In this document: positions 503 through 54,786 of the stretch, one piece after another | Layout of the letters: every line of letters begins with the position of its first letter | Position numbering within the stretch: position 1 is the first letter of the stretch | From: a virus | Strand: one strand, 5' to 3' | Length of the DNA stretch: 64,000 nucleotides | Virus record (IMG/VR): IMGVR_UViG_3300045988_106581 | Position numbers and translations under genes: made by a program | The notes under the pieces: model-generated | The model's database searches: none | Told to the model about the DNA's origin: nothing | What the model saw: only the letters and a program-made list of their open reading frames with translations

Positions 503-981
503 CAACCACACCCCACAAGGTCATCCAGATCCTGCGTCTTGAACGTCATGATTCTCACACGATGGTGTAAATCCATGTTGTCCTCGATGTTGGATGTGAT
601 TTTAAGTTGCTTGATTCCAAAAATTGTACTGCCGTGTAATTCTTTCTCTACAAGACCACTCAGATAGTCAACTCGTGTTGCACCGCCATGACCTTTCATC
701 TTCATCAACGCTTGATTCACAATAACCCACACAGTAAGTGTAAAGTTCTCATACCAATCGTTGACATTGCTGCGGTCGATCATGTTTACCTTAAAACAAA
801 TATAGCTGTGTGCTGCCTCAATCGTGTCGGGAATATGGAAGTATGGGAAGATATATGTATAAATCGCCTCGTCAGGCTCTTCAATATCGTCATTACCCAT
901 TGCTTCAACAAGTCCTTCCGTATTGACCAGCTTTAAAGCCAATTTGTTTTTGTAGTCAGTAATCAATTCACTCGTTGTCAC
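502..981 (-). CDS. hypothetical virion-module protein (159 aa)
   Basis: ORF track. It overlaps its neighbours by a few nt within the late operon. Confidence 0.6.
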   Translation of the reverse strand: MTTSELITDYKNKLALKLVNTEGLVEAMGNDDIEEPDEAIYTYIFPYFHIPDTIEAAHSYICFKVNMIDRSNVNDWYENFTLTVWVIVNQALMKMKGHGGATRVDYLSGLVEKELHGSTIFGIKQLKITSNIEDNMDLHHRVRIMTFKTQDLDDLVGCG

Positions 982-2003
982 AGCAAACTCACCACCTTAC
1001 ATTCGATAGATGTATTTGCCGTACCATCTGCATTTGTCAAAGAAATCCTAACAGTTGCACCGTCCATGATACTATTATTCAAAATACGAATTTTGAAAAC
1101 ATCATCCGTAGCAACCTGTGTTTCAACAAAGCTCTTGAACTCATCAAGGCAAATAAAACTCCACTTTGCAACTTCCGCAACCTCTTCACCCGTAACGCTT
1201 GTGAACACCGGAGTGAACTTTTTCCAAGAGCCACCAACACGAACTTCCGGCTTGCCTGCATACTTAATAGTAGCTGTTACCTGAGAACCCGCATCCGGCT
1301 TATCACTCTTATTGGGCTCAAAATAATCACAAATCATCTTCTCAGCATTATCAGTCTTACTGTTATACTGATCCTGCCGGATATTCAACACAAGGAACCC
1401 CTGTGTCTTGCCATGCAGTTCATAACGCTCTGTGCTCTGATCAACAGAAGTCGTAACATACGTTTTAGGTTCGCCATTGATGATTTCCAGCATAAAACGC
1501 TTATCAAGGTCGATCAGTGCGGTCTCGTCATCAAAAGGCATCTGCACTTTATACTCACGTTGACTCAATGAAGTCATAACGATTTCCTTATTATTTGCGT
1601 AATAAGGCTTGCTCAGCGTTGCCCAACGAGAGACTATCTCACCAGTAATCGGATTTTGCCATTGGATCTGGCGGTTACACAGCTCCATCTTACCACGAAG
1701 AAAAATTTCATCGTTTGGTTCAATCTCAGTTACCAGCCATTTACAGTTGTAACAGTCAACAATATCACCAAGATTCAAAGAATCGCCAGGATAAGCCTAG
1801 ATTTTCTTTTCTTTAGCAATACTATTACTGCGACTAACAACCAGCTTCTGAGGTAAGCCATTCACAAGAGTATTATCCTCATAATCAACACTATCCTTGA
1901 AGTGTGCAGCGAAGTCACGTTTTGCAAAAGCAATTTTTATATCTTTTTTGTTAGACATTTTTGCGGCACCGCCAACAGCTCGCGCCCTCGTATAAAAGTC
2001 CAT
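978..2003 (-). CDS. putative virion/tail protein read through an in-frame TAG (1797-1799). Alternatively two ORFs, 1797..2003 and 978..1778
   Basis: AAGGAGG lies 7 nt before the ATG at 2003. ORFs 1797..2003 and 978..1778 share one frame and are separated only by a TAG plus 18 nt with no other stop. The downstream ORF has no SD and only a TTG start. Confidence 0.5.
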
Positions 2004-2015
2004 CGGTATACCTCC

Positions 2016-2516
2016 TTACTCAGAGTAGGAAGCGTATGTATCATAGTCGATGGTCTTACGCTTACGGGTTGAGCGGTCTTTTGCCATATAGTTGTCTAAC
2101 ATCGTCATATTCTCCTCGTGAATGTCTTTTACAAGAGCACGAATACTCGTGCGCTCATTGGCAGGGGAGAATACCTGTAAACTCGTAGGAAGGTCCTGTG
2201 CGCTAAATGCTTTCAACTTTCCAAACTCACGCTTAAAATGTTGCTCCAACATCAAATGCGCTAACATATCAATCTCATCGAATGTGAGATCTGAATTAAA
2301 CTCTTCTAGTTCTGAATCGTAATCATCGAAACTAAAATCCTCTTCCGGTTCAATGTTTCTGGTAATCACAGAAAGTGACTCCATCAAATAACTTTTTGCA
2401 CGGTCATGTACAAGATCTCGCACTTCATTCTCGGTTAAGTCGAAATACTGAAAGAAATTACTATCAGTTTCGACCAGCTCGTAGAACTTGTCGTATATTT
2501 CTGAAAATGCGGTCAC
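2016..2516 (-). CDS. hypothetical head/tail-joining module protein (166 aa)
   Basis: ORF track, with its position in the late operon. Confidence 0.55.
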   Translation of the reverse strand: MTAFSEIYDKFYELVETDSNFFQYFDLTENEVRDLVHDRAKSYLMESLSVITRNIEPEEDFSFDDYDSELEEFNSDLTFDEIDMLAHLMLEQHFKREFGKLKAFSAQDLPTSLQVFSPANERTSIRALVKDIHEENMTMLDNYMAKDRSTRKRKTIDYDTYASYSE

Positions 2517-4902: not shown

Positions 4903-6450
4903 TTACTTACCCAAATATTCCCGCCATGCGTCACGCTTGTTAGCGTTAGTGGTGTTATACTTGGTTTCATTCAAATTCAGCTTGATACTCTCAGGCTTAT
5001 GTACCTCAGAGGTTTCAATCTTCTTTTCAGCAGGAGCCTTCTTGGCGGCTTCAACGCAACGCTCGGCAATCACACTCTTTATGCCGGTCTCGTCCAAATT
5101 CTCAATCAGACTTGCGTAATTGCCACCCTCGGAAACTTCAGCTTCAGTAATCATCTTGCTGGAGAGTGCGTACTGACGCAGATCCTCCTTCTTCTGTGCA
5201 AGCTCTGCAGCCGCCCTTTCTGCCTCTGCCTTCTCTGCCTGGTCCTTATATGGAGCCAGAAAAGCAACCTCTTCCTTTGCACTCTGCAGCTCAGTGTTCA
5301 GACTTGCAATAGTGTTATTCAGCTCCGCAATCTTGGTATTAACATCAGAAATAGAAACAGTCAAAGTGATATTCTGCGGCTCGCCAAGAGAAACTTCATC
5401 GCCCTCAACAGTATAAGGGAACATAATGTAATCCAGCTCGTTCATGTATCCCCACTTCTTGCACCAGATAGTGTGATCTTCAGGGAACACATCAGTCATG
5501 TAGTAATCAGAGCTAATCTTTGACACTGCATCTTCAAGCTTCATATACAGATCACGACCAGTCAGACTGGAAGTTTCTGGAGCGGGTTCAGGCTCACCAG
5601 CAGGCTCAGTCGGGGGAGGGGTTTCACCGCCTTCCTCGGAAGTCTGAACGTTAGGCTCTGCCGAAGTGGTGGGCTCAGTGGTAGACTCAATAGCGGTCTT
5701 TTCTGCCTGCTCAGTATTGGTTGGATTCTCAACCTGTGCGGTCTGAGTCTCCTTGTCCTTATTCAGTTCCAAATTTTTTGCCTCCTTTTCATTAGATTCT
5801 ATATTTGAAATCTCTTTTGTGTCCTCGATATAGGCATTTGCCAATTCAAGACCAAAATCGGTTTCAGCGACTTCAAGCAGTTTAGAGCACTTATATGCCG
5901 GTTCAACATTTGCACCAAGTAAGCAATGTGCAGTAAACACGCCATCGTCAATAATTTTTGCCATGCGGCCACCCACAATTCCCTTATGAGCTTTCAGCAC
6001 ATCGATTTCCCAACTGGTATTTAATGTGCCGCTCTCAATACGGCGTAGAATCGTCGCACAAGCCTTCGGATATCGCTTCCAGATCTTACAAGAGGCAACA
6101 ATAAAGTCGGTATCGTCAATTTTCTCGATACCGACCGACTGAAAACTACCGAATGCATCAGTGTCAAATTCAGCAGTTTTGTATTCATTGCCATCATCGT
6201 CTTTTCTGGTGACGACTTTCATATTGTGACCAGAAAAATCTAGTTCGCCCTTTGGAGCTACGACCAACTTACCAACAAGCGGGTTGCCAACCAATGTGCT
6301 CATCCAACTTTCAATGGTGTCACGGTTCAAAGCAACCTGATTCCCATTTACTGAGAAATCACAGATGACAAACTTGGCAAGATAGTGGTCTGGATGCTCA
6401 GTAATCTCAGAGCAACAGATGTTTCTACTATAGAAATACTCCTTACTCAT
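4903..6450 (-). CDS. putative prohead protease/scaffolding fusion protein (515 aa)
   Basis: Globular N-terminal domain, a low-complexity E/P/T-rich linker and a coiled-coil C-terminal half. It lies directly downstream of the portal gene. Confidence 0.5.
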   Translation of the reverse strand: MSKEYFYSRNICCSEITEHPDHYLAKFVICDFSVNGNQVALNRDTIESWMSTLVGNPLVGKLVVAPKGELDFSGHNMKVVTRKDDDGNEYKTAEFDTDAFGSFQSVGIEKIDDTDFIVASCKIWKRYPKACATILRRIESGTLNTSWEIDVLKAHKGIVGGRMAKIIDDGVFTAHCLLGANVEPAYKCSKLLEVAETDFGLELANAYIEDTKEISNIESNEKEAKNLELNKDKETQTAQVENPTNTEQAEKTAIESTTEPTTSAEPNVQTSEEGGETPPPTEPAGEPEPAPETSSLTGRDLYMKLEDAVSKISSDYYMTDVFPEDHTIWCKKWGYMNELDYIMFPYTVEGDEVSLGEPQNITLTVSISDVNTKIAELNNTIASLNTELQSAKEEVAFLAPYKDQAEKAEAERAAAELAQKKEDLRQYALSSKMITEAEVSEGGNYASLIENLDETGIKSVIAERCVEAAKKAPAEKKIETSEVHKPESIKLNLNETKYNTTNANKRDAWREYLGK

Positions 6451-6461
6451 CGTTCATCACC

Positions 6462-8090
6462 TCACTTACTATCTTCATTTCTTTGCTGGTCATAAATTTG
6501 TTTTTCAGTTTCCTCGCCCTTTGGACGACCTGTCTTTTTATCACTGTCACTACCACCGCCGGAATTACCGGTCGATGTATAAGAGGTCTGGCGAGCCACA
6601 AATACATCGTCATAACCTTCCTCGGTTTCAGCCTGACGCTTGCGTAGTTCGTCCTCGGCATGAAGTCCCATGTACTCGTAAGCAGTCTTGTAGGAACAGT
6701 TCAAAGTGGTAAACAGGAACTGAGCAATCGCCTTCTTCATCTCCATACCCATCATTTCAGTAGTAGAGACTTTCACATCAGGGCAGTACATCAGATCTAC
6801 ACCTGCATCTTCAAGGCGAATTCGATACCATCGCTTTAATACATCTTCAATCTGTTCTGCAATCTTACCAATATTTTTCATCAGCTGGTCAAGAGACACC
6901 TTTGCAGTTGAAACAGTCTGCTGACCATCAGTGTTCAAGAAACTGATACCCAAAGCAGCCATTTCTCGGTTACGATATTGCTTAACAGTCTCAATGTTCG
7001 TCATTTCAACCTTCGGCTCAACATATTTGATGTCCTTAACATAAGGGGCAGTCGTCACAAGCACGGTATTCTGTTTCCATGCACGCAGTAGGTTGTCATG
7101 TGCCGTAACCTGTTCAGCAAAGCCCTTTTTGTCGTTGTTTGGTCCCATCAACGCAGGGTCAAGTTGCTGCCAGATGATTTTCTTTGCCTTTGCCTTAGCG
7201 TTCACACGGTCTGAAGTATCAAAAGTCTCAAGCATCAATGCCGGACGTAAGGCGCGGAATAGGGGAGAGACACCATATTTTTGCCCCATGTTGCCAATAC
7301 GAATCACACCACAATGGTCAACATCCAATTTTGCATATGTATTACCATTCTTAAACGCCTGATACACCTCATCTGGATAATTGTTTTGAATCTCGATCTC
7401 CTGATTTTCAAAGAACAGTGCTTTATTTTTCTTGTCCTTCAGCATAGATTTACTCAAAGCGGACTTCAGTTTAGACATGTTAATAAGCACAACAGGCTGT
7501 CCATTTGATAAATAATCACTTATCTCAGCAATACCAAGAGGGTAGTAGTCTACAATATAGTTTTCATCCTTCTGACGCAGATATATAATGTAAGTGCCCT
7601 CTGCGTAAGTCATCGGAATTGCAGTACGCAGCAGACTTCGCACGTTGATTTGTGCGTTGAAATCATCAATCACTTCACGGGCATAATTTACCTGTTTTGT
7701 CTTATTACGCTTCTCAGGAAACTGTGCGAAACTGCATTTGAACTCCGTATTAACATTCGCCTCAATCGCATCATAAGTAATGCCAATCAGGTCATCCTTA
7801 TTGATATAATTACGAATGATTCCATTGACCGTCTGCACATTCGTCAGGCTTGACTGCAGCCCTCGTGCAAGCTCATCAATTCGGTCAACTGTAAGTGTCT
7901 CAGAGGAGGCTGAAATTTTTAGATATGTACTATATTGCTTATTTTCAGGGTCATAAGACGCAACTGCATTTCGGATGACGCTATTCATTCTCTCTTCTGA
8001 AAGCTCATTCAAAGAAGTAATAACAACAGTACCATCATCTGTCTGTGAAGCAGTCACGACATCAAAATCTTCTTTTTTCTTTCTTGCCAC
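6462..8090 (-). CDS. putative portal protein (542 aa)
   Basis: Size, with its position immediately downstream of terL. GTG start preceded by GAGGGGGG. Confidence 0.6.
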   Translation of the reverse strand: MARKKKEDFDVVTASQTDDGTVVITSLNELSEERMNSVIRNAVASYDPENKQYSTYLKISASSETLTVDRIDELARGLQSSLTNVQTVNGIIRNYINKDDLIGITYDAIEANVNTEFKCSFAQFPEKRNKTKQVNYAREVIDDFNAQINVRSLLRTAIPMTYAEGTYIIYLRQKDENYIVDYYPLGIAEISDYLSNGQPVVLINMSKLKSALSKSMLKDKKNKALFFENQEIEIQNNYPDEVYQAFKNGNTYAKLDVDHCGVIRIGNMGQKYGVSPLFRALRPALMLETFDTSDRVNAKAKAKKIIWQQLDPALMGPNNDKKGFAEQVTAHDNLLRAWKQNTVLVTTAPYVKDIKYVEPKVEMTNIETVKQYRNREMAALGISFLNTDGQQTVSTAKVSLDQLMKNIGKIAEQIEDVLKRWYRIRLEDAGVDLMYCPDVKVSTTEMMGMEMKKAIAQFLFTTLNCSYKTAYEYMGLHAEDELRKRQAETEEGYDDVFVARQTSYTSTGNSGGGSDSDKKTGRPKGEETEKQIYDQQRNEDSK

Positions 8091-8107: not shown

Positions 8108-9652
8108 TTAGAAGTCAATGTTAGAAATACAAATCGGCGGAGCAGTCATTGTCTCCACCGCAGACTGGCGCACTTTATCCTTACGACGTAATTCATATAG
8201 ACGATGAGCTAAAAGCACCATTGTGTACGCGCGGTCATCTTTCATTTTATTGGCGCGGTCTGGTGGTAACGCATAAGTTACAGAAGTGTTTTCGGGATTT
8301 GTGGTTTTCTGCATACTTGTAATCTCATTTTTCATAAGGTCAATGTTCACCCATGCCGTTTGCTCATCTAAAGACAGCTCGTGCGTTTTCAAAATTTCCT
8401 GACCAGTTGCCTTATCTACACCATCCACAACCTGAACGTAATCTCCACCGTTATATTCAAGAGGAAAGTGGATAACACCAAGATTCATCAATTCAATAAG
8501 CTCTTCAAACATGATGGAACGAAATTTACGCGGGCTAATCAAACGCAATTTGTCTACGGCGTCAGGATAACGAGCGTCATACCCTTCGTAAAGCTCATGA
8601 TTTGCATCAATAAATCCACGATGTTCTGTGCCGGATTTGTCAGTCCAGTTATTTAGCAAACCGTCTGCATAAGTAGAAGTACCGCCGCCGCCTGCGCCTT
8701 GATCAATCATTAACGAATCAATATACTCATAGTCTGGGTTCTGTCCGTTGTAATGAAGAATCAATTCACGCAACTCCTCGATTTGACGGTTTGAGTCCAT
8801 CTTGTATTTTTTTGAATTCGCTAAATCAACCATATTTACACAGTTGATGATATCGCCGCACATACCATTTTCTGGGTCATTATAAATACGCATAATTGAT
8901 ACGATAGAGTTATCCATAGTACGAGCAGGGTCAAAAGCAATCACATACTTATATTGCTTGTCCCAGTATAACTGCGGTAAGTATTTACGCTCATTACGGC
9001 GAACCGTACCCCACTTAACAATCTGATTTACACCGCCATCGCGGGATGGTTTATTATAATATTCACGCATTGCCTTCTCGTGCGCGGATTTTAAAGCTGC
9101 TTCAACCTTATCTCTTGTAAGCAGAGCTTTGTATGGTTTACCATTCATGTAGACCTGAATTGCAACATCGCAAATCATGTCACAAACAAAATAATCGCGG
9201 TCACCAGCAATCATTCGTTTTGCAAAGTTTTTGTAATACTTATAAAAAAGCTTCTCCATAGTATCTTGACTAGAAGCATATACGAGCTGTGTAGGTACTT
9301 TTCGAGGTTGAGTGTCTGGGTTATAAGAATCATTTGTATCGGTGACGAAATCCGTATTCTGTGTTGCAAAAGCTTCACAAACAGTAATTAACTCATCAGA
9401 GCAAAACGCCGCTTCATCAAAGAACACAAGAGTGGCTCTGCGCGAGCGATTGGCATCCGGATTGGAGTTCAATGTATTTATGGAACTACCGTTATAAAAT
9501 TCAACAACGTACCCGGCGGGATTATGACTAAATCCGCTTTTGTTAGTTGGAGATTTAACAGTTTCTTTTTCTGCAATGTCCGTTAAACTACGAATAGACG
9601 CTGCTGTTTTACCAACACGAGTTACAATTTCTTCTATCTTATTAAAAGTTTC
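8108..9652 (-). CDS. terL: terminase large subunit, exon 2 (Walker B and nuclease domain)
   Basis: The frame is open from 9655. It reads ...ETFNKIEEIVTRVGK...VVEFYNGSSINTLNSNPD...ATLVFFDEAAF (Walker B-like), but has no start codon of its own until the TTG at 9472. Confidence 0.75.
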   Translation of the reverse strand, partial: ETFNKIEEIVTRVGKTAASIRSLTDIAEKETVKSPTNKSGFSHNPAGYVVEFYNGSSINTLNSNPDANRSRRATLVFFDEAAFCSDELITVCEAFATQNTDFVTDTNDSYNPDTQPRKVPTQLVYASSQDTMEKLFYKYYKNFAKRMIAGDRDYFVCDMICDVAIQVYMNGKPYKALLTRDKVEAALKSAHEKAMREYYNKPSRDGGVNQIVKWGTVRRNERKYLPQLYWDKQYKYVIAFDPARTMDNSIVSIMRIYNDPENGMCGDIINCVNMVDLANSKKYKMDSNRQIEELRELILHYNGQNPDYEYIDSLMIDQGAGGGGTSTYADGLLNNWTDKSGTEHRGFIDANHELYEGYDARYPDAVDKLRLISPRKFRSIMFEELIELMNLGVIHFPLEYNGGDYVQVVDGVDKATGQEILKTHELSLDEQTAWVNIDLMKNEITSMQKTTNPENTSVTYALPPDRANKMKDDRAYTMVLLAHRLYELRRKDKVRQSAVETMTAPPICISNIDF

Positions 9653-10060
9653 CGATTATATAAATTAAAATTTAATGTACATCGCAACTGCACACTGCCG
9701 CATAAAACGGCCACACAATTTCTTGTCGTGCGTAGACTATTTCATCATCCAAATATAATTTGGAGCTTGATTTTTCCTCCGCCATAAGCTTGCGGTTTTA
9801 CTCTCCCACAAGGAGATAGTCGTTGAACCTTACCCTGTCATATAGACGTTACGGGCAGTGGCTGCATGAACATGGATTATTACGAGCTTTAGCACGCCAT
9901 AAAACGCTTTTATTTCAGCATAGCTCATCTCTACGTTTTTTCCGCTTTCGCACATTTACGTTTACCGTTTTCGATTCCGCTTTAGTGTAGAGCTTTACCA
10001 ATTACCTGCAATTAACCAAGAAGCACACACACATCTCTGTATATGTGAGGCAACTACCTT
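9653..10060 (-). other. group I intron (no ORF) interrupting terL
   Basis: It separates the Walker A exon from the Walker B exon and carries stop codons. It has an R-like element GGTTCAACGACTAT (reverse complement of 9816-9829) and an S-like element AAATAGTCTACG (reverse complement of 9731-9742), giving the P7 pairing GACTA/TAGTC. The 5' exon ends in U (..CAGAGU) and the intron ends in G (..AAUCG). Confidence 0.65.
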
Positions 10061-10363
10061 ACTCTGGTCACCGACAGATGACACTATATAAATACCCTGA
10101 TTCTCATACAATATAGCCTTTAGTAGAATGAAAACAGAACCTACAAAAGACTTACCAAAGTTTCGACTACACGCCCAAAGAACATGACTTGCATTCCAGC
10201 TTTGTTCCAGCATGTATGCCTGTGCGTCAAATAGTTGAATACCCAATAAATCTCTGGCCGCAATAACAGGATTACGCCGATAGAATGCAATCGTTGCCGC
10301 ATCACACTCGTAAATCTTACGTTTTACGGCAGTAATAATAGGCGCTCTTTGCTTCATTCTCAT
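10061..10363 (-). CDS. terL: terminase large subunit, exon 1 (Walker A)
   Basis: ...LWACSRNFGKSFVGSVFILLKA...IYIVSSVGDQS. After this point the ORF continues into intron sequence and stops. Confidence 0.75.
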
Positions 10364-12022: not shown

Positions 12023-12097
12023 TGGCACGCCCACTCCGAATCCAACAGAGATAAGTGAGTTTAGAGCTCACCGTCTTAGGCATTAAACGATAGGCGC
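12023..12097 (-). tRNA. amber suppressor tRNA, anticodon CTA
   Basis: Acceptor GCGCCTA/TGGGCGT (with G-U pairs) followed by G-CCA. D-arm GTTT/AGAC. Perfect anticodon stem GTGAG/CTCAC with loop C-T-CTA-A-A (anticodon at 12062-12064). T-arm CTCTG-TTGGATT-CGGAG. Confidence 0.75.
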
Positions 12098-22395: not shown

Positions 22396-22650
22396 ATTGC
22401 CTCCAGTTCTAATTTAGTTGTACTGACGAGTCTGTATTATATATATGTATAAAGATACATAGTCGTCAGTACAAGTACAACTATCACAAAATATCTCTTA
22501 ATGGTTTACTCGACTTGAAGCTATGGAGCGTAAGCGACATAGATTCAATTTGAGTAAACCTACGAGCGTCCTCAGACGCGAGATCTCTCTCCACGCCCTG
22601 TCTGGAAGACTACTATAAATATCCACCACACTACATCTATCTTCTTTGAG

Positions 22651-22671
22651 GTATCCTGTGTAATGTAGCTA
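22651..22671 (-). promoter_or_regulatory. conserved 21-nt motif, copy 2 (leftward)
   Basis: GTATCCTGTGTAATGTAGCTA on the plus strand, 255 nt upstream of the 22395 start. Confidence 0.5.
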
Positions 22672-22709
22672 TCTACACTCATTATATCATCAAAATGCCA
22701 AAAGTTCAA

Positions 22710-22730
22710 TAGCTAAGTAACACAGGATAC
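22710..22730 (+). promoter_or_regulatory. conserved 21-nt motif, copy 3 (rightward)
   Basis: TAGCTAAGTAACACAGGATAC, divergent from copy 2 with 38 nt between them. Confidence 0.5.
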
Positions 22731-23205
22731 AAATATTTTAGCACCTATTATAATAAGGTATGTTTCTTGGAATGTTATCTATTCATGACTCGCAAGCTCG
22801 CTTCCGCTCTATGAGCGGGCGACCATTGCTAAGTAAGCTGACGGTCACTACGTTCTCTCTGCATATTTAGTTCAAGTCGCTATTACACATTATTCTCCAG
22901 AAAGGATATCCAAATGCTCTATATATTCTGTGTAAGCTGCCAGAGGCTACAATCATACTCCTTATAAGTCTTTAAAGTCTCTGAGAGTGCTACTCAGATG
23001 CTAGATCAGTCCATTTATGGCGATAGGGGAGTATAGATGAGTACAAATAGATACTTTACGCTCCGAAGAATGATCATTTTCGGTACATTTAGGGAACACA
23101 TCGGAAAAACCCGCATGAATCCTAGGTTTTTCGGCTTTTATTAGGTCAAAAAGGAACAAAATAGGTGGTAAAAGATACAAATAAAAAGAAAAACTAGCAA
23201 AAATA

Positions 23206-23221
23206 TAACGTAAATACGTTA
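23206..23221. promoter_or_regulatory. palindromic operator-like site TAACGT-N4-ACGTTA (copy 2 of 3)
   Basis: ATATAACGTaaatACGTTAAAT. Confidence 0.45.
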
Positions 23222-23974
23222 AATTCTAGCTAGTTACCGAATGGGCTACCGATTGAAAAATAGCGATCTTAAACCACTTTTTTGGTATTTTTGATGGAAA
23301 ATGAGAGATTTGTGAGTATATGTAGAAGAGGGTATAGGGATGTATTTTGGGGATATTTTTGTCAGGGGAAAGTGTACCCCGGGGAGGGGAGGAGGTAGAG
23401 AGTGTGATGGAGTGCCGGGATGGGATAAGATGGAGATTAGGAAGGTTTGATAGGAATTAGAAAGAAGGTAATTTTTGTGGAGATTGCTGTGTAAATTGTA
23501 TAGTAATATGGAATATAACAAATTGATAATTGGTGATTATGAATAAGAAAGATGTACTGGGGGGCTCGGCCTGCTGCCTAGAACGTCCAAAAAATGAAAA
23601 GTGCACCCCTACCTTGTCCAGTGCTGGAAATGCTCAAAATACGACACTCAACAGGGCAAGGAACGGCGGGAAGTTTTGGCGGTATCTAGTATCTGAAAAC
23701 AGGAGCAACAAAAGTTAAAAGTTTTAACTATTTTAATTCAATCTTACACATTGCCGGGTGTTTCTTTTGTTCGCTAATTGTTGACACGTTGCCGGGCGTT
23801 TCATATCTTATGTACTTTTCATATACTGCCTATATATTTTTTGATATACCATTCTTTTTCCCTTATAAGGTAATTATATATTATATTTTATCCTTATTTC
23901 AGCCAAAAACACCCACGATTCACTAAAATATAATTTTTAACGATATATCGCTATTTTATAAAAATCTATAATTC

Positions 23975-24011
23975 TTGCAACTTTTGTGCATGAATTGCAA
24001 CTTTTATACAT
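23975..24011. repeat. two direct repeats TTGCAACTTTT(G/A)T(G/A)CAT
   Basis: Read directly at 23975-23991 and 23995-24011. Confidence 0.6.
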
Positions 24012-24018
24012 AGACTTC

Positions 24019-24098
24019 CTAGCAAGGAACCGCTATAATTAAGCCACAATCTAGCAAGGAACCTAGCAAGGAACCTAGCAAGGAACCTAGCAAGGATT
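24019..24098. repeat. 12-bp iterons CTAGCAAGGAAC: one isolated copy plus four tandem copies (the last is degenerate)
   Basis: Copies at 24019-24030, 24051-24062, 24063-24074, 24075-24086 and 24087-24098 (the last ends ..GATT). Confidence 0.8.
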
Positions 24099-24919
24099 GC
24101 GCCGAACTTTGAAAACTGAATCAATCTTTTGTGGGAACGGCTCAAATGTTCCCGCTTAATCTAGGCAAGTGCAACAAGCCCATCGTGGTTATAAATCAGC
24201 AGTCTACCGGAACGGTAAAGCACCTAGAAAGTTTGATTCAGTCGGAAAAATTCGGCGGTGTAGGTAGCACCGATTTAAAAAAATCCAGCGCTTGCAAATG
24301 GGCGTCAATCGTGCATTCCGCACGCAATCAAACACACTTGCTATCCTACCGTATAGGTTAGAAAGATACGGAAAACAGGAAACACGGCTTGACCGTTTAA
24401 TCACTGTTTTGGTTTTGGCAATGCAAGCCGAAAAAACCTAAAAAAGCCGTTTGTCCGATTAAGGCATAGAGGGCAAACAATCCGCATTCACCGGATACTA
24501 GAACGCATTGTATGCACACAAAAACCGTTGTACAGAAAAGAGGGCAACGGCCATACATTGCAAGACTAGACAAGTAAGGGCAAGAAAGAAAGTACAGTTT
24601 GCGTATACTACAAACTAACTTTTGTGGGTTTATATCCACGGGCTACACGTTGCAAGGTTTATACTTTGCTTGTATGGTTTATGCCATACTCTATTGTAAC
24701 AAAGTCAAGTGTAGTTTGCAAGGGCTGTACAGCAAAGGTTTTTTATCTGTTTTCCAGCAAATTAAACAGACACAAAAGGTGTACATACTTTGCCCTTTTT
24801 AGGGCAAATCATAAGCTCATAAGCAAGGCGTTTTGTCTAGTTTGTGGGCTTTGATTTGCGCTAAAACGCAAAACCATACGACTATACACAATTCAGAACA
24901 CAAAGAAAAGAGGATTATT

Positions 24920-48361: not shown

Positions 48362-49288
48362 ATGCTTACTGAAGAAAAAATCAACGCTTTTGCTACAAGG
48401 TATTCTGACAGAAGTAGCAAATTTGTTGTTCAGACATTGCGTCATGTCATGGATTACGAATCAGAGTGTGGATGTGATTTGTTTAACTTCACAAAAAATG
48501 ATTTCATAAAGATGTTCATCAAATATAACTGGGTAAATTCGAGTCGTTCATATAAGAATGTAAAATCAATACTCACTGGTTATCTTAAAAGTGAAGATCG
48601 GATAAGTATGTACGACTTAACTGAACTTGATGAAAATGACGTAAGTGCAGACAATATGTATGATGACAAGTATTTCGCATCAACTGATGAGTTTGTTGGC
48701 CTTTTAAATAAATACAACGAGCCGTACCAAATTCGTATGAATGTAATTGCTGTGCTGTATTGGATTGGGCTTACATCCGAAGAAGTTTCCAATCTGACAA
48801 TTAACGATGTTGATTTTGAATTAAATTCTGTTCTTGATAAGACTGATATTGATGAAAATTTAATGGATATCATTAAGCGGTGCTATGAGATGAAACAATA
48901 TGAGGCCACCAACATGGGAGGTTGTAGAACGTTTTATGTCATAAATGGTGATTATATCCTTCGTAAAACAGAGGATAGAACTGGAATGGACAGTGATCCG
49001 AAGATGTCTACACATACAATCCACAATCAGATTGTGCGGTTAAATAATATTATCAAGAAAGGAAATAACAAAAAAGTTTTGTGTCAACAACATCTTGCAA
49101 GAAATTGCGAGTATGTGAAGGTCTACAATTATTATAAAAATCATCCTGAGTTTGACCTTGCTAATCTTAGCCTTGGAAAAAGTAAAGATACTCTTAAAAA
49201 CATTATTGGAAGAACGTTCAGTAAGGTGACTTATATTAGTTTCCGGCAAGGATATAAGGGCTGGGTCGAATACTTCCACAAAAATTAA
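48362..49288 (+). CDS. hypothetical protein, possibly a degenerate integrase-like fold (308 aa)
   Basis: ORF track. LYWIGLTSEEVSNLTINDVD resembles the Arg-I box but has T in place of R. No clear H-x-x-R or Tyr box. Confidence 0.4.
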   Translation: MLTEEKINAFATRYSDRSSKFVVQTLRHVMDYESECGCDLFNFTKNDFIKMFIKYNWVNSSRSYKNVKSILTGYLKSEDRISMYDLTELDENDVSADNMYDDKYFASTDEFVGLLNKYNEPYQIRMNVIAVLYWIGLTSEEVSNLTINDVDFELNSVLDKTDIDENLMDIIKRCYEMKQYEATNMGGCRTFYVINGDYILRKTEDRTGMDSDPKMSTHTIHNQIVRLNNIIKKGNNKKVLCQQHLARNCEYVKVYNYYKNHPEFDLANLSLGKSKDTLKNIIGRTFSKVTYISFRQGYKGWVEYFHKN

Positions 49289-52258: not shown

Positions 52259-53011
52259 GTGGCGTTAATTGATTTATATTCAAAAGAGGAACTAAAGACA
52301 ATAGTTGAAAATTCTTACTCAATAGCAGAGATTATTAGGAAGTTGGGATATTCAACGAATTCCGGAAATAATAATCAGACTATTAAGTCTCGTATAAAAG
52401 AATACGAAATTGACACGTCTCATTTCAGACATCAAAATTGCACAAAGAGATCACCGGAAAATATTTTCGTTGAGAACTCAACAGCAAAGCAATCAGTTCT
52501 GCGACGTTGGTATAAGAAAGGTAATTATTCTCAATATGTATGTTCTATTTGTGGTTTGCTTCCAGAATAGAATGATAAACCATTGACTTTGATTCTCGAC
52601 CATATCAACGGAAAAAATAAAGATGATAGGATTGAAAATCTTAGATGGGTCTGTCCCAATTGTAATCAACAATTAGACACAACTGGATACAAGAATCCAA
52701 ATCGAGCAGTATCTGCGAGAAGAGTTTATGAAAGACGTACTGTTGAAAAGAAAATCTGTCCTAGATGTGGCTCGTCAATGAGTTATAATGCCGACATGTG
52801 TAAATCATGTTGGGAAGTAGAGAAAAAATCAAAAAAGAAACCTTCACGTGACATTTTAAAGAGCTTAATTCATACAAAGGGCTTTATGGAAATTGGAGAT
52901 GAATATGGCGTAACAGATAGAGCTGTTGCAAAATGGTGCAGATCTGAAGGGTTGCCATATCGAATGACGGACATTAAGAAAATTCCTGATGAAGAGTGGG
53001 AGAAATTATAA
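52259..53011 (+). CDS. HNH homing-type endonuclease with an in-frame TAG (52568-52570). Either a pseudogene or read through
   Basis: ORFs 52259..52570 and 52583..53011 are in one frame. The junction reads ..CSICGLLPE-TAG-NDKPLTLILDHINGKNKDDRIENLRWVCPNCN, so the HNH core lies just after the TAG. Confidence 0.6.
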
Positions 53012-53813: not shown

Positions 53814-53890
53814 GGGATAGTAGCTCAGTTGGTCAGAGCTGGCGGCTCATAACCGCTTGGTCGGGAGTTCGAATCTCTCCTGTCCCACCA
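53814..53890 (+). tRNA. tRNA-Met (CAT)
   Basis: Acceptor GGGATAG/CTGTCCC followed by A-CCA. Anticodon arm GGCGG-CTCATAA-CCGCT. T-arm GGGAG-TTCGAAT-CTCTC. Confidence 0.8.
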
Positions 53891-53916
53891 GCCCGATAGG
53901 GCGTACATAAAACCTG

Positions 53917-54786
53917 CTAGAACTTTTGTTTTAAATTATGTAAGGAGGGATTTTCTGCTAGACAAATCAGCGTCTGGTCTTGCAACGTAGAAATCGTTGC
54001 ACTCAATTCAGTTTGAACCAGAGCACCTTTACCGCCACCTTCACATCCAGAACGGATTTTTAAAGTGTAGGCTGCAGGTTCTGTGCATCGAGTCGAAGTC
54101 TCTCGATGGTCTGACTCCAATACTCGTCCAATTCCTTCTCTTCCAGACCTTCTTGTTCCTTCACTTTCTGCACCACCTGTGACAGAGTTCCTGGATTCCA
54201 CCATTCGATCATATCCAGCAACGCTTGCTTCAGGAGTTCGAGTAAAGGTTTTCCACGCCGGGATGCTCTCACAAGAATCCCCTGACATGCTCGTGCGCTC
54301 AAATAGAATTTCTGAGGCACGTTGTCCTCCAAAATCCATGACAAGCGCGATTCTCTGGCGGCGCTGGGCGACTCCCCAGTATTTAGCGTCGAACAATCTC
54401 CATGCAAGAGACCATCCATTACCGGAAATCGCTCCAGATTTTTCCCACTTTCCGTTCTTTCCTGAAGGTCGAGGAATTGAAACGTCTGGCTCGACAATGC
54501 GTGCAAATCTTTCCAACACACATCTGAAGTCTTCGCCTTTGCTTGAGCTGAAAGCTCCTCTGACATTTTCCCAGATTGCAAATTTTGGATATTCTCCATT
54601 GGTGGCCTCCCTCATTTCTGTAATCACACGAATCATTTCAAGGAACAATCCAGAGCGTTCACCAGCCAAACCTTCACGTTTACCGGCCTGACTCAAATCT
54701 TGGCAGGGACTGCCTCCTGTGATACAGGACACCGGCTCAATCTGCCATCCATGGAGTTGTGTGATATCTCCGTAATGCTTCAGTTT
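53917..54786 (-). CDS. cytosine-5 DNA methyltransferase fragment A (motifs IV-VIII plus the first half of the target-recognition region)
   Basis: ..HYGDIT..GGSPCQDLS (IV), FAIWENVRG (VI), QRRQRIALV (VIII) and GGGKGALVQ..SATISTLQDQTLI. There is no motif I. The frame opens right after a TGA at 54787-54789. The first in-frame canonical start is the GTG at 54732. It ends in TAG. Confidence 0.7.
   Translation of the reverse strand, partial: KLKHYGDITQLHGWQIEPVSCITGGSPCQDLSQAGKREGLAGERSGLFLEMIRVITEMREATNGEYPKFAIWENVRGAFSSSKGEDFRCVLERFARIVEPDVSIPRPSGKNGKWEKSGAISGNGWSLAWRLFDAKYWGVAQRRQRIALVMDFGGQRASEILFERTSMSGDSCESIPAWKTFTRTPEASVAGYDRMVESRNSVTGGAESEGTRRSGREGIGRVLESDHRETSTRCTEPAAYTLKIRSGCEGGGKGALVQTELSATISTLQDQTLICLAENPSLHNLKQKF
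53923..53933. repeat. left arm of the 11-bp inverted repeat (CTTTTGTTTTA)
   Basis: It is the exact reverse complement of 54884-54894 and lies within the last codons of fragment A. Confidence 0.7.

Follow-up and report, generated by a model that had tools for sequence, protein, structure and literature searches.

The 64,000-nucleotide (nt) viral stretch IMGVR_UViG_3300045988_106581 (hereafter the window) carries on its minus strand a frame that runs from an ATG at 2003-2001 to a TGA at 980-978 and is interrupted only once, by an in-frame TAG at 1799-1797. The Shine-Dalgarno (SD) motif AAGGAGG (2017-2011) precedes the ATG by a 7-nt spacer and is followed by 68 codons up to the TAG. Beyond it, 18 nt in the same frame (GCT TAT CCT GGC GAT TCT) lead to a TTG at 1778-1776, from which the frame is open to the TGA. 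The frame contains 341 sense positions once the TAG is read, and AAGGAGG is the only ribosome-binding site for all of them; inspection of the region upstream of the TTG found no SD-like sequence. An earlier note, made from the letters of this DNA, had described a second open reading frame (ORF) that starts at the TTG without an SD, in frame and 18 nt past the TAG. The sequence bears this out, and the coordinates, frame, SD, and peptide string of that note proved exact when the sequence was re-read. The codon-usage scores flanking the TAG were 20.6 and 89.6, and no other frame in the window had such a strong signal on both sides. Because of this two-sided signal and the presence of the same TAG in independent assemblies, a chance arrangement is excluded. 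Termination at the TAG would give products of 68 and 266 amino acids (aa), and the predicted full-length product is ~38 kDa. The predicted junction peptide is IQAYPGDSLNLGDIVDCYNCK with glutamine (Gln) at codon 69 and IWAYPGDSLNLGDIVDCYNCK with tryptophan (Trp).

Positions 978-2003 are one gene, not two. A search of the fused product against 5.8 billion proteins retrieved single-ORF homologs of 334-344 aa that covered 94-100% of it, with identities of 97, 84, 73, 49, and down to ~30%. Also among the results were entries of 266 aa (101 member sequences) and 236 aa (213 member sequences), which are the output of standard gene callers given a stop at codon 69 or 89. Two PHROG families matched residues 32-236 and 45-229, both across codon 69 (with the TAG filled in), and distant homologs from the Clostridia (Ruthenibacterium, Flavonifractor, and Acutalibacteraceae) were continuous too. 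An AlphaFold model, made of the 97%-identical intact homolog and not of the window protein, had a mean predicted local distance difference test score of 83 and consisted of an N-terminal helical and beta domain and a C-terminal immunoglobulin-like (Ig-like) domain. In this model, strand 65-70 contains residue 69 and strand 87-95 contains residue 89, and both codons would therefore lie within a folded domain.

The best match in BFVD (A0A8S5VD49, 341 aa, 96% identity) is annotated as "Head closure knob," as are several more distant viral models (E = 1e-63 to 1e-10 for the matches so annotated), a label that represents automated annotation of metagenomic phages. The gene is located between a head-tail connector-like gene and homologs of YomW and YomU_Tube, and its neighbors carry Pfam families of SPbeta virion proteins (YonD_N, YonB, YomW, and YomU_Tube). 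The neighbors' families and the head-closure annotations together point to a late virion gene in the structural module of an SPbeta-like siphovirus. By the annotation of its matches and by synteny, the product is a putative virion head-closure protein, which resembles SPbeta-like head-closure or neck proteins in gene order and resembles A0A8S5VD49 in length and fold. It had no match in a Pfam search, a PDB sequence search provided no functional assignment, and a Foldseek search of PDB with the model matched no solved structure beyond Ig-like domains and lambda gpV. The proposal of the earlier note that a TAG joins two ORFs into one 341-codon virion gene is thus supported by the ~341-aa single-ORF homologs, the PHROG matches, and the head-closure annotation; the check that it suggested, a search for homologs spanning the junction, was positive, with many single ORFs covering 100% of the fused product. 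Searches of GenBank phages detected no close annotated relative, and a search for a prophage or host carrying the portal gene found none. As no close prophage and only distant Clostridia homologs turned up, we infer the host from the distribution of the protein family alone, which would point to gut Clostridia.

The same TAG recurs among relatives. In 80 IMG/VR loci (L003-L082) that were fetched with a 542-aa portal-like gene as the anchor (96-99% identical to that of the window), codon 69 was TAG in 18-19 and TGG in 58-59 of the ~77 loci scored, with a slight difference between two surveys. A second in-frame TAG was located at codon 89 in 21 other loci, with the predicted junction ...DCYNCK-W-LVTEIEPNDEIFLR when read as Trp, and the gene contained no in-frame stops besides those at codons 69 and 89 in the 80 loci. 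The context of codon 69 was ATC-TAG-GCT in the window and in an ENA contig (L001) and ATC-TGG-GCT in a Logan contig (L002), with many third-position (synonymous) differences around this codon among the three. The 13 distinct alleles with TAG at codon 69 (TAG69) differed by a proportion of synonymous differences (pS) of 0.22-0.35 and formed seven clusters at 3% divergence. Their ratios of nonsynonymous to synonymous differences (pN/pS) were 0.03 in codons 1-68, 0 in codons 70-88, and 0.12 in codons 90-341, which shows purifying selection on either side of the TAG. Because the TAG69 alleles have diverged at pS and yet show low pN/pS, a recent nonsense mutation, an assembly error, and a decaying pseudogene are ruled out, and a functional split is hard to reconcile with codons 70-74, which separate the TAG from the TTG and are fully conserved. 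In-frame TAGs were sparse, with 0-3 sites per 21-kilobase (kb) structural region, and were polymorphic among close relatives. The genome is not broadly recoded, as the window contains one certain in-frame TAG and perhaps a second.

TAG is almost never used as a terminator in the whole lineage. Among 101 genes of the window, 55 ended in TAA, 44 in TGA, and two in TAG, and both of the latter are candidate read-throughs. In relatives, 5 of 481 ORFs ended in TAG when the genome lacked a tRNA with the anticodon CUA, compared to 27 of 943 when it had one, the latter mostly being in-frame sites. The avoidance of TAG also in relatives without this tRNA suggests that the loss of the TAG terminator predates or outlasts the suppressor in any one genome. 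A crude comparison of ORF coverage in six frames did not discriminate between alternative codes. The C-5 cytosine DNA methylase profile has 324 positions, of which the ORF at 53833-54732 (minus strand) matches 64-131 only. This ORF ends in TAG (codon 272), past which there is no coding signal; it probably represents the remains of a truncated methylase, and its TAG may be the one genuine terminator of this kind in the window.

A tRNA with the anticodon CUA, which matches the recoded stop and differs from the CCA of bacterial tRNA-Trp, is encoded on the late-gene strand ~10 kb upstream of the head-closure gene (Table 1), in a cluster with tRNAs for Lys, Ser, Tyr, and Thr. ARAGORN labeled it "tRNA-Pyl" purely from the anticodon and left 75-nt variants of this family undetected, and automated annotation thus mislabels and under-counts CUA suppressors. 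A sequence-pattern search recovered the family in 116 IMG/VR contigs (L083-L198), with ~19 variants of 75-79 nt. Compensatory changes were present in 13 of 21 cloverleaf pairs across these variants, which indicates that tRNA(CUA) is under selection. A first correlation of TAG with the tRNA, which relied on ARAGORN alone, was weak (12 TAG loci without a CUA tRNA), blurred by the missed 75-nt variants, and was replaced by one that used the sequence pattern. When eight validated TAG sites were scored in the 80 loci, 42 loci had both TAG and the tRNA, seven had only the tRNA, 27 had neither, and four had TAG without the tRNA (Fisher p = 1e-10). Three of these four contigs end before the tRNA cluster, and the fourth (L044) is a real exception. 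The slot between tRNA-Ser(tga) and tRNA-Met(cat) held tRNA-Trp(CCA), tRNA(CUA), or neither in relatives, but never both, and none of the 10 loci with tRNA-Trp(CCA) had an in-frame TAG. Both tRNAs have G1.U72, C2-G71, G3-C70, G73, and an encoded CCA in common, with variation or co-variation in their other arms; all CUA variants end in ...TGGGCGT-G-CCA, and the discriminator G73 is thus present. Among tRNAs with other anticodons, the Trp(CCA) genes come closest to the CUA tRNAs (~78% identity), which by sequence appear to be related to the tRNA-Trp(CCA) of the lineage. In L044, a long tRNA-like element was observed at ~6430-6540, between tRNA-Ser and tRNA-Met, with acceptor-like ends (GAGCTTG...CAAGCTC), the T-arm GGTTCGAATCC, and a large internal insertion. 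ARAGORN makes no call for this element, which may be an intron-containing or degenerate tRNA.

The TAGs are found mainly on Trp codons. Column 69 of the head-closure family is Trp in the closest clade (P0001-P0005, P0011, and P0013), and W89 hardly varies within the family. When orthologs of all late genes were surveyed across the 80 loci, five genes proved to carry clean TAG sites on majority-TGG codons (Table 1). In the large terminase (TerL), W56 shows no variation, and 13 of 16 homologs, with identities down to 47%, have Trp at position 63; this residue lies two residues before the Walker-A-like motif CSRNFGKS, is TAG in 30 of 78 loci, and would give the junction ...NASHVL-W-ACSR when read as Trp. 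An independent all-against-all survey of all fetched loci retained a site if, on both flanks, none of the other five frames scored higher in codon usage than the TAG frame. This filter left 14 distinct sites, of which 11 were opposite Trp and three opposite Gln (one locus each), and all seven sites seen in at least two loci were opposite Trp. TGG accounts for 5% of the codons one step from TAG (11% with transitions weighted threefold), giving P = 2e-12 to 1e-8. CAG is also one transition from TAG and is 2.6 times commoner than TGG, so that the mutational proximity of TGG to TAG contributes to this pattern but cannot explain the deficit at CAG. The unfiltered version of the all-against-all survey yielded mostly "Gln" and was rejected, as its sites were predominantly in non-coding shadow frames where antisense CTA/CTG mimics TAG/CAG. 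A "Trp" site at codon 116 of ORF 9995-10363 was dropped because of a group I intron there, and the statistics were recomputed.

Table 1. Features of the window at and around the read-through frame, and late-gene Trp codons at which TAG occurs in relatives.
Feature	Position	Strand	Basis or remark
Virion head-closure/neck protein gene (putative)	978..2003	minus	341 codons if TAG is read; full-length single-ORF homologs, structure model
In-frame TAG (codon 69)	1797..1799	minus	Recurs in related loci; inside beta-strand 65-70 of the model
Shine-Dalgarno AAGGAGG	2011..2017	minus	7 nt 5' of the ATG at 2003; read directly from the sequence
Putative amber-suppressor tRNA, anticodon CUA, 75 nt, CCA encoded	12023..12097	minus	ARAGORN; Rfam tRNA 40.9 bits (cutoff 29)
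TAG on majority-TGG codon	ORF 502-981, codon 85		Late-gene ortholog survey
TAG on majority-TGG codons	Head-closure gene, codons 69, 89		Late-gene ortholog survey
TAG on majority-TGG codon	ORF 4903-6450, codon 124		Late-gene ortholog survey
TAG on majority-TGG codon	Portal-like gene, codon 338		Late-gene ortholog survey
TAG on majority-TGG codons	Large-terminase exon 1, codons 56, 63		Late-gene ortholog survey
Candidate second read-through, HNH-endonuclease-like ORF, TAG 52568-52570 (codon 104)	52259..53011	plus	Uncertain

These observations may be accounted for as follows. Ribosomes would start at the ATG at 2003 behind the SD, and at the UAG of codon 69 the phage tRNA(CUA) encoded at 12023-12097 would carry them through instead of allowing termination. 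The tRNA(CUA) family, which shares its slot, acceptor stem, and discriminator with tRNA-Trp(CCA) and differs from it at anticodon position 35 (C to U), would most likely be charged with Trp by the tryptophanyl-tRNA synthetase (TrpRS) of the host. TGG and TAG would then be near-synonyms in genomes with tRNA(CUA), and TGG-to-TAG transitions could persist at Trp codons, mainly in late genes. Expression of tRNA(CUA) would then be required for the complete head-closure protein and, in many relatives, for the large terminase too. Read-through by a phage tRNA that gives a single protein is very probable from the sequence evidence, and the explanation as a whole (one late gene, read-through by tRNA(CUA), and a tRNA most likely charged with Trp) is probable. 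Close relatives with tRNA-Trp(CCA) appear to be free of in-frame TAGs, whereas those with tRNA(CUA) have one to three of them at Trp codons of essential late genes, a pattern that looks like sparse, polymorphic TAG-to-Trp decoding and not like genetic code 15 (TAG read as Gln).

Several alternatives were weighed against this explanation. A sequencing or assembly error, which would turn TGG into TAG by a single base, can be dismissed: 18-19 related contigs, independent of one another and obtained from different samples, have the same TAG, as does an ENA assembly. A split gene or pseudogene, in which translation would stop after 68 aa and the remaining 266 aa would be made from the TTG at 1778 or not at all, corresponds exactly to the output of standard gene callers (P0006, 101 members; L001), and some phage structural genes do exist in split form. 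It is nevertheless very improbable here: the TTG lacks an SD, the break would probably fall within a beta-strand of the model, and codons 70-88 (including 70-74) have no amino-acid change among TAG69 alleles at a pS of 0.29. Furthermore, in alleles with TAG at codon 89 the next ATG is at codon 107, so that a conserved segment would be lost, and TAG alleles are tied to the suppressor tRNA. Charging of tRNA(CUA) with Gln as in code 15, with Trp positions merely tolerating Gln, agrees with all earlier cases of TAG recoding in phages, which are TAG-to-Gln, and with the variation of column 69 in distant homologs (Y, R, K, I, N, and H). On the other hand, 11 of the 14 sites, including all recurrent ones, are on Trp codons although CAG is commoner and equally one transition away; these sites include the nearly invariant W89 and the invariant W56 of TerL, and the other recurrent sites are on aromatic or hydrophobic columns (Phe/Tyr and Leu/Phe). 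The acceptor stem of tRNA(CUA) has C2-G71, whereas the glutaminyl-tRNA synthetase (GlnRS) of E. coli uses G2-C71 as an identity element. Insertion of Gln is thus unlikely, although less so than a split gene.

Several observations weigh against Trp decoding. The full-length locus L044, on an incomplete 84-kb contig, has a TAG and no detectable CUA tRNA, and the CUA tRNAs are just ~78% identical to Trp(CCA) genes outside the acceptor stem. Three TAGs, each in a single genome, are on CAG (Gln) codons, one late-gene site is on a Phe/Tyr column of the capsid gene, and one recurrent TAG of the early region sits on a Leu/Phe column instead of a Trp codon. Since TGG is one transition from TAG, some TAGs would fall on Trp codons by mutation alone. 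In E. coli, the identity of tRNA-Trp resides in G73, the CCA anticodon, and the first acceptor pairs; with a CUA anticodon this tRNA loses recognition by TrpRS and is charged by GlnRS, which also speaks for Gln, whereas yeast tRNA-Trp(CUA) stays Trp (PMC2965240). Because of the E. coli case, the ancestry of the tRNA does not prove charging with Trp, and the assignment rests on the site statistics and on residue conservation. On this basis, the residue inserted at TAG is likely Trp, and charging of tRNA(CUA) by the host TrpRS is the most likely route.

A further possibility, which fits either amino acid and would add to Trp decoding instead of replacing it, is that partial suppression acts as a throttle or timer, such that full-length head-closure protein and terminase await the build-up of the tRNA. 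This corresponds to the regulatory model of Borges et al., in which recoded stops tie late-gene translation to phage factors (10.1101/2021.08.26.457843), and thus has a published precedent. The suppression efficiency and any regulatory purpose are matters that we infer here. TAG was found in some relative in 7 of 55 late-gene Trp columns, compared to 2 of 76 early-gene columns (p = 0.035), the latter from a separate set of 80 loci (L199-L278) that covers the replication and early region. The two early-gene TAGs were each in one genome, whereas several late-gene sites, including those in TerL and the head-closure gene, were of high frequency. However, the late-versus-early contrast is modest, the sites are few and polymorphic, and seven tRNA-bearing loci have none. 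Near-neutral drift between synonymous codons would fit at least as well, and the data appear to fit late dependence and TGG/TAG drift with a Trp-inserting suppressor equally well; a throttle is conceivable but doubtful. The resemblance to TAG-recoded phages with recoded codons in late genes, which the earlier note had pointed out, holds for the late bias but not for broad recoding, and the residue that it had left as X is most likely Trp and not Gln. The cognate tRNA(CUA), which the note had not picked up, and the evidence for Trp are what the present analysis adds to it.

Stop-codon recoding with suppressor tRNAs is already established in phages, and its marks are present here: an in-frame stop in a continuous protein family, a matching tRNA, depletion of the terminator, and concentration in late genes. 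The gut phages that read TAG as Gln (crAss-like, Lak, and phAss-1; 10.1101/2021.08.26.457843; PMC9523058; PMC10607447) similarly have a phage tRNA(CUA), in-frame TAGs in conserved virion genes, few TAG terminators, a late bias, and a host that presumably uses the standard code. In contrast to those phages, in which TAGs occur in dozens of ORFs and align with Gln, the sites of this lineage are few and mostly aligned with Trp (both codons 69 and 89 are Trp), vary among genomes with 96-99% identical portal genes, and go with a tRNA that resembles tRNA-Trp. Code 15 also involves widespread TAGs and a rise in coding density; the 64 kb of the window contain one strong and one or two weak candidates, and detection by coding density would assign this genome to the standard code. 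The 136-kb gut phage phAss-1 was not equated with this lineage, as its TAG-to-Gln recoding in 41 ORFs with three suppressor tRNAs is a different pattern. The phages that read TGA as Trp (code 4; Agate, Jade, and some crAss-like phages) resemble the present case in that a stop one transition from TGG is read as Trp, the suppressor derives from or resembles tRNA-Trp, and recoded and non-recoded close relatives coexist. Unlike in those phages, where UGA is read by a UCA anticodon changed at position 34, the codon here is UAG, the anticodon is CUA, and the change is at position 35, a major TrpRS identity position in E. coli that is altered in this tRNA and not in code 4 suppressors. The same single anticodon change (CCA to CUA) relates tRNA-Trp to the E. 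coli amber suppressor su7 (supU; Yaniv et al. 1974, as cited in PMC2965240). According to that account, su7 is a laboratory mutant charged by GlnRS, whereas the present family is natural and appears by site statistics to carry Trp; yeast tRNA-Trp(CUA), which keeps its Trp identity, is the closer functional precedent. Borges et al. found only TAG-to-Gln and TGA-to-Trp in phages whose code differs from that of the host (10.1101/2021.08.26.457843), and a 2024 survey, in which recoding was detected by a gain in coding density, recognizes no tables other than 15 and 4. Searches for amber-to-Trp decoding in phages found no report in the full-text literature, where subscription journals are mostly outside the coverage, and as far as found UAG-to-Trp decoding is undescribed for phages or bacteria.

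Other features of the window and its relatives were also noted. The candidate second read-through ORF (Table 1) lies inside a second tRNA cluster and has matches to Pfam HNH and HNH_3 (residues 95-138) that span the TAG but are below the curated cutoffs. Its coding scores flanking the TAG are weak (4.5 and 12.5), and the fetched loci yielded no orthologs of it. This ORF could represent either a further read-through gene or a homing endonuclease in decay. In the orthologs of the ORF at 48362-49288 (plus strand), which has an MrpR-like N-terminal core-binding domain, codon 240 is TAG in 13 relatives and TTA, TTG, or TTT in the others; past this codon the frame stays open as far as the shared TAA. 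No other recurrent TAG was seen outside the late genes. A group I intron appears to interrupt the large terminase gene (8108-10363, minus strand), with ORF 9995-10363 as the N-terminal ATPase exon and ORF 8108-9472 as the presumed second exon. The former contains the Walker-A-like motif CSRNFGKS and has a homolog (P0036) with Pfam Terminase_6N; the full-length Rfam Intron_gpI model aligns to 9712-10050 at 35 bits, below the cutoff of 50 (E = 4e-7). A 2.4-kb region (~22400-24800) at the boundary of the minus-strand late module and the plus-strand early genes contains no ORF with a coding signal under either code and is probably a divergent regulatory region. Three regions of the relative L001 (929-1918, 5894-8300, and 3728-5293) also stood out. 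Its 515-aa YonD-like gene is called as 123 and 359 aa owing to a TAG at Trp codon 124, and a GIY-YIG endonuclease ORF is found between the terminase and portal genes. The capsid gene of L001 is called as 274 aa and is followed by a DUF723/zinc-ribbon endonuclease ORF, which may represent an intron or a homing-endonuclease insertion.

Taken at somewhat better than even confidence, this lineage of ~110-140-kb SPbeta-like gut phages uses natural UAG-to-Trp decoding through a position-35 change in a phage tRNA-Trp and is at an early, polymorphic stage. If this is true, stop reassignment in phages is not limited to TAG-to-Gln and TGA-to-Trp, and the constraint that has been ascribed to the promiscuity of host GlnRS and TrpRS would need to be revisited. 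The population would then offer a rare natural snapshot of early codon reassignment, in which terminator loss is complete, the anticodon switch is segregating, and few codons are reassigned, making codon capture and ambiguous intermediate models directly testable. Such sparse recoding escapes code prediction based on coding density; with standard callers, the genes for terminase, portal, and head closure come out split or truncated, as in P0006 and P0007, which have hundreds of member sequences, and translation with table 15 would give the wrong residue at conserved tryptophans. A natural tRNA(CUA) that is accepted by TrpRS, if confirmed as such, could also interest genetic-code engineers.

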